The translations under genes were made by a program, and so were the position numbers. This document shows positions 12,989 through 51,442 of a DNA stretch of 64,000 bases, in pieces (the first letter of the stretch is position 1; every line of letters starts with the position of its first letter). Below the pieces are notes generated by a model. The model was not told the origin of the DNA, did no database searches, and saw nothing but the letters and a program-made list of their open reading frames with translations. Source of the stretch: a virus; IMG/VR virus record IMGVR_UViG_3300031999_000005, positions 1 to 64,000 of that record, one strand, 5' to 3'.

Positions 12989-13275
12989 CCATGGAAGACC
13001 TGGACAGGACTTTGCTGAATGATCTGGTCTCGCGACCTGAAGCCCTGCAACACGTACTTGAACTGCTCCAGATGTCGGACGATCCTGATGCTGCGATGGT
13101 GTGCTTTGAGGCTTTGCACAAAGCCTGCAAAGAGAAAGGCATTGATTTTGGGATCGCCGTTGCCAAGTCTGTCAAGAACGTGAATGAGAAACTGTCGGCT
13201 TTGCGTAGCAAGGAACCGCTGAAGTTTGACGGTGGTAAAACCTTGCGATCTGCGATTATTTTTAGTAGCGGGTGA
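12982..13275 (+). CDS. Hypothetical protein (paralog of 12254-12547)
   Basis: SD aaggag; shared motifs. Confidence 0.65.
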   Translation: MLTMEDLDRTLLNDLVSRPEALQHVLELLQMSDDPDAAMVCFEALHKACKEKGIDFGIAVAKSVKNVNEKLSALRSKEPLKFDGGKTLRSAIIFSSG

Positions 13276-13354
13276 GGGACTCGGACCCTCCGGGGCACCC
13301 CGATCTAGGGCGGCTTCAGGTTTATAGGACCCGCCTGCACACCCGTGCTACCCG

Positions 13355-14083
13355 CTATTTGGAAGGAAAGAGACCACGTAACCAGGACCAGACCTTGGCG
13401 CCCTCACTCAACACCAGCCCACCAATCCGCACCGCAAACGAACCCGGCCGCGTGGCACGGTGAACAGCGTCCTTCAAATCAGTGCTCACCTGCACACCGT
13501 TGTCGGCAATCGTGATTCCGTCCCGGCTGATGGTTTCCAGGTGCTTGCTGCTTTCAGCGATGGCCTGCAATGCCACAGGGATGTTGGGATCGGCCAGCAC
13601 CTTCCGCAGGTCCTGAAGGGCAAGAGTGGCATTTTCGGCCAGGGGCTTCACATCCGCAGCAGTCTGTTGGATAGCCTTGGCTGAGGCATCGGAGACTTTG
13701 CCGATGTCGTTGGAAGTATTCAGCACGGATCGCGTTATGGCAGGAATCAGTGCCCCGTTGACGGCTTGGTCGGTATTCTCCACCAGTTGGGTCAATTGAG
13801 ATTCAAGCACGATCAGCTTGTCGAGCGATTCCTTGGTCTTCTGGAGGGATTCCGTGGTGGCCTTGGCTTGTACGACCGATGCCTTCTTCCATTCTTCGGT
13901 AGCTTTGCGCAGGTCTGCTGAGACTCCCCCAATGGATAACACCACGCGCCGAGTGTCGGTTAGGAGAGGGCGAAGACCTTCGGTGAGCGTCCAAGCCAGC
14001 CGAGCGATTGAAAGGCAAGTGAGAATCCCCGCGACCAAGAGCAGGTCGCGGAGGATTTCACGAAGAGATGGACGGATGTTCAC
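13355..14083 (-). CDS. Membrane-anchored coiled-coil protein in lysis cassette (spanin-like candidate)
   Basis: N-terminal TM segment, long heptad region, downstream of hydrolase and holin-like genes. Confidence 0.55.
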   Translation of the reverse strand: MNIRPSLREILRDLLLVAGILTCLSIARLAWTLTEGLRPLLTDTRRVVLSIGGVSADLRKATEEWKKASVVQAKATTESLQKTKESLDKLIVLESQLTQLVENTDQAVNGALIPAITRSVLNTSNDIGKVSDASAKAIQQTAADVKPLAENATLALQDLRKVLADPNIPVALQAIAESSKHLETISRDGITIADNGVQVSTDLKDAVHRATRPGSFAVRIGGLVLSEGAKVWSWLRGLFPSK

Positions 14084-22536: not shown

Positions 22537-25115
22537 TTAACCTCCGTTCATTGCCTTGATAACGTCCTCACCAAGCTGGCGGCCGTATTTCTTGAGCAGC
22601 TTTCGGCCGAGGGCCGCAGCTTTTGCCGAAAGAGTGGGCGCCGCCGCCAGGGAATGTCCGATCCTCGCGTCCATGCGGTTAAATCCGTGCCCGTCGAGTA
22701 GCCGGGCACCGTCGCACACGCCGGCCAGGGTCCGCAGCGCGGAATGGACGGCTTGGATCTGCGCGGCGGTGATCGTCTCGGCCTCTTTCTCCACCGTGGC
22801 ACGGGAGACATTCCTTGTAGCTGCCTGTTCCTTTGCAGGGGTGATTGGTACGGTGGATTCGATCTTGTCGTCCAGGGCGGCGTCGAAGACCTTTTGTTTT
22901 TCCACCAGCGTCCACGCCATCTTTGCGTCGAGCGAACCGTCCAGCACTAGGTATTGAACCAGCACCGGGTTGACAGTGCCAATCCGGTGACACCGAGCGA
23001 TAGCCTGCGAGATATTGGTCGGCACATAGTCAAGCTCGGCGAAGATTTCGTGGCTGCTGGCCGTTAAGGTGATTCCTATGCCTGATGCCTGGATGGAGCC
23101 GACGAATAGTTTAATCTCGGGATCATTCTGAAAGCGGTGGATCGCCTCGTCCTTCTGTGTCTCGCTGAGGCCGCCGCGATGCAGGACTGCCACGCCGGGG
23201 AACTCGGCTATCAGCGCATTTCCTACATCGTGATGGTGACACCAAAGCACCACCTTCCCCCCCTCCTCCAAGGCATTGCGCACATGCTCGGTAACCAGAG
23301 GCACCTTGCAGACAGCGGTATCATGGCGCAACTTGGCGATCTCGGTAAAGGCGGCGTTCACTCCCTTGGTGAGTTTCGCTATGGCCTTCCGGTAATCCTC
23401 AGGGTCCTCGGATGCTTTCGCCAGTTCGACGGCAACGCGCAGTTCTTCTATGGCCTCTTCATGGCGCTGGTAACCTTCTTCCTCAGCGGCTATGAACCGT
23501 GCCATCTCTGCTGTTGGTGGGATTTCAATTACCTGATGCAGGATGGGCGGTAGTTCACGGAGGACATCTTGCTTCAGTCGGCGGATCATGCAAACTTTTC
23601 TCAGCAGTTCTTGCAACTCAGGAAGATTGCTTGCGCCGGAAAAGTCCCAAACCATTTTGCCGCGTCGGTTCACGACCTTTTGGTGCGCGTTGCAGAATCG
23701 TCGCAGGAATTTCCAGGTGCCGCCGAACTGCTCAATCACTCCAAGAATCTCCAGCGGGAAGGCCAACTCTTGCGGTCTGTTTAGAAAAGGTGTGCCACTA
23801 AGAGCCATGATCCGCTTGCCATTCCCTTCGCAGAGTCCCTTGACGGCTTTCGACCTGGCCGCCTTCGAGGACTTAGCCATGTGGATTTCGTCAATGATGA
23901 TTGTCTGCGGAGCAACCTGTTTGATAGCTGGTAACCATGCGTGCAATATATCGTAGTTACAGATAATGAGGGCCTTCGGTGGCAGCGGCCAGAGTTCCGA
24001 TTGTTTCCGGGTGGAGAGGGGAACTGGAGTGCAATCAGGGATGAGCCTTCGGGCTTCCCGAGCCCAGTTCAACTTCAAACTGGCCGGCGTAATCACGATA
24101 GCAGGCCATTCCTGAGTCACAGCAAGCACGCCAAGCGCCTCCCAAGTTTTACCCAAGCCGGTCAGCCCATCTCATCGCCGAACAGGACTCCTGTTTTGGC
24201 GTGAGATGGGCTTGCACCTCCTTTCAGTGCTTGAAGCGAATGACTTTCCAACCCAAAGCTTCGAGCACTTCGGTTTTTTTCTGATCTTTCTCCGCTTGCC
24301 ACCGGCACCTGTGGGACGCCCCGTCTAACTCGATCACGATTCTGAGGGACGGATGGGCAAAGTCCGCCTTGTAACTGCGTGGCGGTTGGTGTTCCGTCCC
24401 GTGGCCCTTCGTTCTGATGATGTATTCCTGGATGCAACCAAGAGGTTGGAGCATTCTCGACATTGCTTGAGACATCGGTGTCGGAGGTTGCCCGTTGCCC
24501 CCGCTGAAGTAGCTTGGATTTTTGGCTAAAGCTCGAAGATGTTTCTCTCGCACCTCCGGCCGGTGCATCGCCTTGCGTGTAGCTTCGGAAACCCTCATTC
24601 GCCATTCCGGGTTTGCAGCTATGGTTCTGAGGGCCTGTCTGGCCTTGCGTCTGGCAGCAGGGCCGTGTCCCAAGGCTAGATTCTGGCGGGCTGCTTCCAG
24701 TTGCTCTTTCGTTCTCCGGTATACCCCTGTTGGCATTGACTTCCTCCCTAACCCCATTATGGGTCTTGAGAGAACTGAAATCAAAGCCAAATTTCTCCAA
24801 AGCGTATTTGATAGCGGCTTTCTGGAACCCGAAGTAATTGATGCCGTTCGGTGCCGGGATCTCAATATCGGCATCGGTGGCTCGGCTGGCGGCCATGGAT
24901 TGCTCTCGGGCGTCGGCCGCGCCCTGGAGCACTGCGCGGGTTTCATCGTCGGCGTACTGAATCAGCCGGGAAGCGGTTTCGATGGATTCGGTGTACCAGC
25001 CGCGGCGTTCTCCAAGAAGGCCAGCCGACCACCGAAATCCGGCGGACTTGGGCACCGTGCGTTCGTCATAGGAGCACACGCAGTAGAACCGCTTTCCATC
25101 GGTGATGAGTGTCAA
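22537..25115 (-). CDS. SNF2/HARP-like helicase interrupted by an 8-nt coding gap (24157-24164) and carrying an in-frame insertion
   Basis: Part 1 ends GVLFGDEMG*, part 2 begins LGKT, then DEIH, LSGTP, RRLK, GITLT, QAIARCHRIG; Q-motif FQKAAI in part 1. Confidence 0.9.
24224..24736 (-). CDS. Vsr-like / DUF559 (EDxHD-type) endonuclease nested out of frame in the helicase gene
   Basis: SD GGAGG then ATG; basic repeats; ADFAHP...IELDGASH...KDQKKTEVL...GWKVIRF. Confidence 0.85.
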   Translation of the reverse strand: MPTGVYRRTKEQLEAARQNLALGHGPAARRKARQALRTIAANPEWRMRVSEATRKAMHRPEVREKHLRALAKNPSYFSGGNGQPPTPMSQAMSRMLQPLGCIQEYIIRTKGHGTEHQPPRSYKADFAHPSLRIVIELDGASHRCRWQAEKDQKKTEVLEALGWKVIRFKH

Positions 25116-51365: not shown

Positions 51366-51442
51366 CGGGGCGTAGCGCAGCCTGGTAGCGCGCTTGCCTT
51401 GGGCGCCGGTAATCCCCGGTTCAAATCCGGGCGCCCCGACCA
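51366..51442 (+). tRNA. tRNA-Pro(TGG)
   Basis: Cloverleaf CGGGGCG/CGCCCCG, D arm GCGC, anticodon loop CTTGGGC, GGTTCAAATCC, encoded CCA. Confidence 0.93.

Follow-up and report, generated by a model that had tools for sequence, protein, structure and literature searches.

How can a phage helicase be made from a gene whose Walker A loop is broken by a stop codon and a gap that is not a multiple of three? The question is raised by IMG/VR virus record IMGVR_UViG_3300031999_000005, a phage record of 103,756 bp (88% complete by CheckV; GC about 56%) whose first 64 kb, hereafter the window, we analyzed. On the - strand of the window, a SNF2 helicase gene is interrupted by 8 nucleotides (nt) within the Walker A codons, next to a gene for a DUF559/Vsr-like homing endonuclease. 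Comparison with diverged relatives marks the gap as a conserved recoding site bordering a homing-endonuclease cassette. We further consider it reasonably probable that the 8 nt, which form the 3' end of this cassette, act as a programmed coding gap that the ribosome would cross by a hop.

An untranslatable gap in the Walker A loop

Positions 24176-24145 of the - strand read GAT GAG ATG GGC / TGA CC GGC / TTG GGT AAA ACT (GAT 24176-24174, GGC 24167-24165, TGA 24164-24162, CC 24161-24160, GGC 24159-24157, TTG 24156-24154). Deletion of 24164-24157 yields the canonical D-E-M-G-L-G-K-T. An earlier sequence-only reading of this locus had listed the gap, the matched GGC codons and the adjacent stop, and every one of these elements is present. 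Its claim that the helicase motifs beyond the gap are intact also holds, with a 539-codon open reading frame (ORF) carrying SNF2-rel_dom and Helicase_C by Pfam. In the closest intact relative of the helicase (P0005, 664 amino acids (aa), 87% identical) the loop is uninterrupted and canonical in length, as it is in 12 of 12 relatives that have no endonuclease.

The record comes from a metagenome assembly, a source in which an assembly or sequencing artefact might produce such a break. An independent assembly (Logan/ENA, 34.5-kb contig) encodes an identical endonuclease and has its helicase gene call cut short in the same way, to 530 aa, and the same structure recurs in other samples and lineages, leaving this explanation with a negligible chance. 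Two of these lineages are available as DNA. L027 (TARA; nuclease 55% identical) reads GGC GAT GAC ATG GGC / TGA AT GGT / TTA GGT AAA ACG, and L183, a contig of a Gammaproteobacteria metagenome-assembled genome, reads GCT GAC GAG ATG GGC / TAA AT GGA / CTC GGA AAA ACC. Common to both is a stop directly after GGC, two variable bases, a GGN codon and then Leu. The codon that would occupy the A site after take-off is UGA in the window and L027 and UAA in L183, and TGA or TAA in all other gapped helicases found. Take-off and landing codons pair as GGC/GGC in the window, GGC/GGT in L027 and GGC/GGA in L183, combinations that the same peptidyl-tRNA could read. Substitutions flanking the gap in the three sequences are synonymous, each side in its own frame, and the helicase C parts, only about 39% identical to each other, are intact over 539 (window), 559 (L027) and 550 (L183) codons. 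Decay of both halves in relatives, named beforehand as a sign against a working gap, was not seen. Conserved coding in the proper frame thus lies on both sides of an untranslatable gap, as synonymous changes, intact C parts and the canonical DEMGLGKT attest; from these sequences, recoding is needed for a full-length helicase.

A profile made from four N-terminal fragments was run against 1.84 billion representatives, with matches of about 285-360 aa and alignment to the last residue. It gave 22 diverged N-terminal fragments, the window included, together with six uninterrupted cassette-bearing forms. The fragments end in D-x-M-G in 18 cases; the other four (P0132, P0137, P0141 and P0148) end one codon later, in DEMGL followed by a stop, and take-off in some lineages may occur on a Leu instead of a Gly codon. 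Because the same structure is found in L027 and L183, in the 22 fragments and in the second assembly, a private mutation is excluded on sequence grounds as the origin of the 8-nt break. Annotated phages gave no DNA match, the exact gap junction was found in no other record among viral contigs, and the 401 genomes searched from the class of the L183 genome held no further copy.

The same alignments bear on two explanations that involve no recoding at the ribosome. In the window, the TTG that encodes Leu of LGKT lies 5 nt after the stop, and translation could end at UGA and restart at TTG 24156 to give two polypeptides that assemble into a helicase; genes split by homing endonucleases are known, Aeh1 nrdA and T4 genes 39/60 being examples cited in PMC2677866. 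The corresponding codon is TTA in L027 and CTC in L183, and we rejected TTG 24156 as a restart for the P-loop since the start codon is not conserved. In neither relative does the downstream frame offer an ATG, GTG or TTG ahead of GKT, which excludes reinitiation as a source of the P-loop; the next start lies at least 20 codons downstream or is absent, with GKT lost. A split gene, which would moreover be cut midway through the P-loop, is extremely unlikely. Alternatively, the gap could be absent at the nucleic-acid level, through an 8-bp deletion between GGCT repeats in part of the population or through excision from the RNA. GGCT does flank the gap in the window (GGCT GACC GGCT) and would permit slippage deletion, but L027 and L183 have just 2-nt repeats at 8-nt distance. 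Furthermore, 8 nt is far below any known self-splicing intron, there is no Rfam match, and the two assemblies agree, which makes removal of the gap very unlikely. We also discarded an alternative genetic code, as 8 is not a multiple of three and decoding TGA as a residue leaves the frame broken.

An endonuclease gene overprinted on the helicase frame

A homing endonuclease adjoins the gap, as had been proposed, and its TGA (24226-24224) lies 57 nt before the take-off codon; the gene is not merely upstream, but sits inside the helicase gene. The protein matches Pfam DUF559 (E 3.8e-11, 43 bits against a cut-off of 20.6) and has a Vsr-like PD-(D/E)XK core, with D125, E136, D138 and H142 invariant among relatives. 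The suggested likeness to T4 MobA is accordingly partial: a homing endonuclease stands beside the gap, but by Pfam it belongs to the DUF559/Vsr-like PD-(D/E)XK family and not to HNH. The whole 103.7-kb record contains one SNF2 helicase gene and one DUF559 gene.

Across the nuclease gene, the helicase frame of the window has no stops and the +1 frame has six. Eight independent nuclease relatives (L016, L024, L027, L028, L029, L030, L031 and L034; 32-55% identical) all lie inside a SNF2 helicase gene, and in all eight the frame one base upstream of the nuclease is the helicase frame, with 0 stops versus 2-22 in the +1 frame. The nuclease relative in L183 (53% identical) is likewise within a SNF2 helicase gene. 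Shuffling of synonymous codons gave P = 0.0014 for the stop-free helicase frame in the window, 0.0008 in L027 and <=0.0004 in six others; the sole case without significance was L028, with 70% GC. Because the helicase frame is stop-free across the nuclease gene, we conclude from these comparisons that selection acts on the reading that begins at the helicase start and crosses the nuclease gene as far as the gap. The insertion itself is sporadic, with at least four sites in SNF2 genes, a distribution that, together with the altered Walker A of ungapped carriers, points towards homing by putative site-specific cleavage of cassette-free alleles. The points of insertion vary, lying ahead of the Q motif, between it and motif I, or beyond motif I. 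These layouts establish, at the level of gene arrangement, the linkage of the gap to a nuclease.

The N-terminal region of the helicase aligns with P0005 as far as KYALE. P0005 then reads KYALE-HRATFLGDSMG-LGKT, and the window has 197 extra in-frame codons after KYALE, then HAKTGVLFGDEMG, then the gap, such that about 640 nt (24794-24157) stand in place of 33 nt of the ancestral helicase gene. The host-frame product up to the gap stop is 317 aa long and has no Pfam match. A group I intron was rejected, with no Rfam match even at E up to 10 and about 60 nt of non-ORF sequence leaving no room for a ribozyme, as was an intein at the window locus, with no Hint/Intein domain or splicing junction in the host-frame product by Pfam. 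The host protein is thus predicted to carry a linker of about 190 residues instead of an intron or intein. The window and L027 are 89% identical in DNA over the 27 nt that precede the gap and 49% identical directly past LGKT, which fits the gap as the 3' edge of a mobile cassette, as in the MobA element (bioRxiv 10.1101/2022.08.31.505936). Of the sequence around the promoter-like site (Table 1), the element ATAATGGGGTT is common to L016, and CCCATTATATAATG to L016 and L024.

Table 1. Features of the helicase locus in the window, followed by related loci
Feature	Position	Strand	Description
Helicase N-terminal region	24795..25115	-	TTG start at 25115, AAGGTGG 7 nt upstream; runs through the Q motif (FGFQKAAIKYALE)
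Cassette-encoded in-frame linker	24204..24794	-	197 codons in the helicase frame; overlaps the nuclease gene one base upstream of its frame (-1)
Promoter-like site	24756..24784	-	TTGATT, 17 nt, CATAAT; just 5' of the nuclease ribosome-binding site; consensus match only
DUF559/Vsr-like homing endonuclease gene	24224..24736	-	170 aa plus TGA; free-standing, own GGAGG-N6-ATG
Shine-Dalgarno-like GGAGGTG	24215..24221	-	5' foot of the hairpin; no in-frame start codon after it in the window
Long hairpin	24164..24212	-	3' arm formed by LFGDEMG codons, ending on the take-off GGC and the U of UGA; 5' arm formed by SPSHAKT of the linker
Cassette-borne substitute for host segment	24165..24203	-	Occupies the place of P0005 HRATFLGDSMG
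Putative take-off codon GGC (Gly)	24165..24167	-	Also GGC in L027 and L183
8-nt coding gap	24157..24164	-	UGA stop, CC, putative landing codon GGC
Helicase C part	22537..24156	-	Leu of LGKT to stop
Overprinted helicase loci	L016:2241-4901; L024:2714-5422		Stop-free helicase frame across the nuclease gene
Small gapped phage SNF2-type helicases	L036-L076, L085, L092, L118, L125, L127, L131, L146, L178		Gap between (L)DMG and LGKT
Gap lengths elsewhere			6 nt TGAGGC; 7 nt TGAGGGC; 8 nt in many; 9 nt TGATAGGGC, TGACTTGGT; 10 nt, e.g. TGATATGGGT

A hairpin and a Shine-Dalgarno-like element precede the gap

The long hairpin said to end on the first GGC and the U of UGA is borne out by folding, with arms AGCCCATCTCA (24212-24202) and TGAGATGGGCT (24174-24164) and the inner stems CGCC/GGCG and AACAGG/CCTGTT as described. 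Its predicted RNA fold has an energy of -44.3 kcal/mol (z -5.2), which none of 200 shuffles equaled. Hairpins are also present in L027 (z -4.5) and L183 (z -2.4), and the joint occurrence of gap, hairpin and endonuclease that had been put forward as a check in related helicases is therefore seen in both. L028 has its nuclease at the same site, no gap, and no significant hairpin (z -1.1). In a three-way alignment, the 9-bp outer stem is 96% paired with two compensatory double changes, and the third-codon variants GAG/GAC and GAT/GAC of the 3' arm are both answered by changes in the 5' arm. With three sequences this covariation is suggestive rather than statistically strong, being attained in 58 of 500 shuffles.

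The window, L027 and L183 all have an invariant GGAGGT 45-50 nt 5' of take-off. Both upstream elements leave a trace in the encoded proteins. KGG, the trace of GGAGGT, occurs in 20 of 22 gapped fragments and in 0 of 6 uninterrupted forms (one regex match being spurious); for P[SF][RHLV], the helicase-frame translation of the 5' arm, the counts are 18 of 22 and 0 of 6, respectively. The conserved peptide before take-off (KGG..PS[RH]..GVL[IF][AG]DEMG) may merely reflect these RNA elements. The hairpin is not an intrinsic terminator, as there is no T-run and no terminator-like site. Collectively, conservation of the gap, hairpin and GGAGGT across lineages is established by the sequence comparisons, and on the proposed hop, hairpin and GGAGGU would likely act as stimulators.

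Gaps at the same site in other phage helicases

Unrelated phage helicases, most of them low in GC, have gaps of 6, 7, 8, 9 and 10 nt at the corresponding position (Table 1). All gaps of 6-10 nt in a helicase context open with a stop and close with GGN, and non-helicase chance matches do not. One sub-family includes close relatives with gaps of 7, 8 and 9 nt. In the small gapped helicases the pre-gap ORF is just about 31 codons, and a strong 5' hairpin like that of the window is found in L146 only (z -5.4). An HNH endonuclease gene lies directly upstream in five of the 10 small gapped helicases tested, indicating that the association of gap and nuclease recurs with a different nuclease family. 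Multiple lengths at one spot fit a hop and not one fixed frameshift; the sole mechanism that accounts for all of them with a canonical P-loop in every case is re-pairing of peptidyl-tRNA-Gly on a downstream GGN.

The range of gap lengths bears most directly on a programmed -1 frameshift, in which peptidyl-tRNA-Gly, with UGA in the A site, would slip back from GGC to GGG (A UGG GCU GA) and reading of CUG ACC GGC would give DEMG-LTG-LGKT. A G precedes GGC in the window, L027 and L183 alike, Leu-x-Gly would be read in all three, and the resulting GLxGLGKT still fits GxxGxGKT. Shine-Dalgarno-like sequences stimulate bacterial frameshifts, as in dnaX and prfB, and we counted this toward a -1 shift. 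Such a shift would make the P-loop three residues longer than in P0005 and the 12 endonuclease-free relatives, and it would operate with no X XXY YYZ heptamer and no downstream structure, the hairpin lying 5' and not 3'. Four clade fragments, moreover, end one codon later (DEMGL), and the 6-, 7-, 9- and 10-nt gaps of other helicases, including TGA TAG GGC, are unbridgeable by -1. As these other helicases are evidence by analogy for the window, we retain the -1 shift as the main rival while regarding it as doubtful. The two mechanisms predict different junction peptides, TGVLFGDEMGLGK for a hop and TGVLFGDEMGLTGLGK for a -1 shift.

A proposed hop across the gap

By the hop that we favor, translation would start at TTG 25115, pass the N-terminal domain and Q motif of the helicase, and continue in frame over the 197 cassette codons that overlap the nuclease gene in its -1 frame. 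The ribosome would arrive at GGC (24167-24165) with UGA in the A site. Peptidyl-tRNA-Gly would then leave GGC, the mRNA would slide 8 nt, and the tRNA would re-pair with GGC (24159-24157). Decoding would restart at UUG to complete the DEMG-LGKT loop of a single full-length helicase. The hairpin could re-form behind the ribosome and hinder backward movement, and GGAGGU at its foot could pair with the anti-Shine-Dalgarno of 16S rRNA. By interrupting the Walker A DNA, which is highly conserved and probably belongs to the nuclease target, the gap would render the carrier immune with the protein unchanged. Of the independent short hop cassette first proposed for this locus, the matched Gly codons, stop, hairpin and nuclease are conserved across lineages; the hop itself, the roles of hairpin and GGAGGU, and immunity are what we infer from them.

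Several points weigh against this mechanism. The hop is deduced from sequence. The landing codons GGT of L027 and GGA of L183 share just two of three positions with the take-off GGC. Folding of the exiting mRNA, with a 12-nt exit footprint, gives a gain of just 1-3 kcal/mol over the 8-nt slide and a large gain only later. We do not claim a role of the hairpin as a forward 'pull', given this small energy change from take-off to landing. Most gapped small helicases are without such a hairpin. The gap is 8 nt in all three DNA examples of the clade, a length that a -1 slip on G_GGC could bridge. Finally, a selfish cassette could spread despite harm to the helicase.

This last point would apply if there were no recoding, the cassette being purely selfish and the helicase inactivated or reduced to its 317-aa N-terminal fragment, with the downstream ORF intact since invasion is recent. 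Horizontal spread of this kind predicts the observed pattern, a greater similarity between lineages for the cassette DNA by the gap than for the helicase that follows. Recent invasion is difficult to reconcile with three helicases of about 39% identity that keep 539-559 intact codons after the gap, with a broken form in 22 diverged clusters, and with a helicase frame kept stop-free over the nuclease in gapped lineages. Conservation of the gap form (stop, 2 nt, GGN), hairpin and GGAGGT also argues for function, as does the status of the helicase as the sole SNF2 gene in the record. Loss of the helicase without recoding is thus unlikely.

The Walker A codons as a probable target of selfish elements

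Disruption of the nuclease's cut site at the Walker A codons by the gap is plausible, with indirect support from the loop sequences of carriers. Gapped carriers have DEMG, DDMG or DAMG, and nuclease-free relatives mostly ADEMG. Uninterrupted carriers have DEPG (three of six proteins and L028), DDPG, DSMG (twice) and DQMG. Such altered loops fit carriers destroying a Walker A-spanning target by either substitution or gap. Pro replaces Met in the loop of the uninterrupted carriers P0147, P0159, P0189 and L028 (2100-2130), whose nuclease occupies the same site as in the window, and in 0 of 12 nuclease-free relatives; this substitution may be a target-site escape by substitution instead of a gap.

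Other elements occupy related positions. P0080 (838 aa) carries a mini-intein of about 155 residues exactly at DEMG/C...HN/CGKT, the same point as the 8-nt gap, and these codons thus appear to be a hot spot for selfish elements of more than one kind. In L034 (1198-3378), a 32%-identical nuclease relative lies within an intein (Hint/Intein_splicing, residues 139-412, ending LVHN/C) of a SNF2 helicase; the nuclease frame differs from the intein frame, and the intein's endonuclease is thus overprinted and not fused. P0165 (310 aa) is an N-terminal helicase fragment that switches midway to the nuclease frame and ends in the C-terminus of the nuclease (...GWKVKRIKH), a fused or frameshifted variant of the cassette. 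In the helicase relatives P0025 (851 aa) and P0122 (862 aa), motif Ia is followed by hydrophilic, low-complexity inserts of about 200 residues, which may be further nuclease genes overprinted on the host frame. Elsewhere in the window, ARAGORN detected a tRNA-Ile (anticodon TAT; 13265-13356, - strand) that at 92 nt is unusually long for a tRNA, and there is a tRNA-Pro(TGG) at 51366-51442.

Comparison with known systems

The closest counterpart is the T4 gene 39/mobA/gene 60 cassette with its 50-nt bypass (Huang et al. 1988 and Bonocora et al. 2011, as cited in bioRxiv 10.1101/2022.08.31.505936). Both systems have matched Gly take-off and landing codons with a stop directly after take-off. Each has its gap at the 3' end of a cassette that supplies, along with the homing endonuclease, a substitute for the host segment it displaced, and each is located in a strongly conserved stretch of a gene for DNA metabolism. 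The gap of the T4 mobA cassette protects against its nuclease (bioRxiv 10.1101/2022.08.31.505936). T4 bypassing involves a 5' stem-loop and a Shine-Dalgarno-like element, and elements of both kinds are conserved here. Bypassing of the T4 type also includes a nascent-peptide signal, and for the window a bypass of this type is a prediction from sequence. At 8 nt versus 50, the gap of the window has no room inside for a take-off stem-loop; the conserved 5' hairpin is present, with its small computed energy gain over the slide. The hosts differ (topoisomerase large-subunit gene in T4, Walker A of a SNF2 helicase here), as do the nucleases (HNH versus DUF559/Vsr-like). Moreover, the T4 host gene is split, whereas here the host frame runs through the nuclease gene in its -1 frame. 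With its DUF559 nuclease and SNF2 host, the locus is an analogue and not a member of the MobA-type bypass cassettes.

Synthetic 'stop-hops' in Escherichia coli (Weiss, Dunn, Atkins and Gesteland 1987, as summarised in PMC5009743) are likewise short peptidyl-tRNA hops between matched codons flanking a stop. They are described there as low-efficiency events in artificial constructs, and the same review reports no known natural in-frame stop-hops; the candidate described here is natural, conserved and, at 8 nt, frame-changing. The terminase of Streptomyces phage phiHau3 is a candidate for regulatory bypass, verified by mass spectrometry in E. coli (PMC10732093). Like the candidate in the window, it is a short-range bypass within a phage gene, with codons that match and RNA structure close by, but its take-off relies on the rare codon UUA and not on a stop, the terminase gene is without an endonuclease cassette, and the hop of the window is a prediction from sequence. 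Vsr-like nucleases of 'fractured genes', group I introns and stand-alone inserts (PMC2677866) also have their own control elements and lie inside phage DNA-metabolism genes. Their hosts are split and rejoined by a split intein, or restored by intron removal, whereas here the host frame reads through and then meets a coding gap. Magnusiomyces capitatus mitochondrial byps, according to the accounts of Lang et al. 2014 in PMC5009743 and PMC10732093, are many short untranslated inserts skipped between matching codons. Byps differ in being mobile hairpin elements of 27-55 nt, mitochondrial and, in those accounts, without an endonuclease link. Our literature search turned up no report of SNF2 helicases with coding gaps at Walker A, nor of host frames overprinted by a nuclease gene.

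Translational bypassing has long rested almost wholly on one case, the 50 nt of T4 gene 60, and the existence of shorter natural examples with matched codons was long assumed without any being known (review, PMC5009743). The helicase locus would offer a compact natural example, testable and with about 90 nt of signal. Its candidate stimulators are unusual, a 5' hairpin that ends on the take-off codon and a Shine-Dalgarno-like element at the hairpin's foot. In annotation, helicases of this kind should not be called pseudogenes or split genes. With this locus, the association of bypassing with homing endonucleases also reaches another nuclease family and another host gene, which supports the view that coding gaps evolve as self-immunity for selfish nucleases. 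Beside introns and inteins, there may be a third way for homing endonucleases to sit harmlessly in essential genes, a proposal for and against which we find the case evenly balanced: overprinting of the nuclease on a translatable linker, with a short hop hiding, in the most conserved codons, the insert that breaks the target. On this view, stop-hops of 6-10 nt would be a common natural feature of phage helicases and not peculiar to T4.

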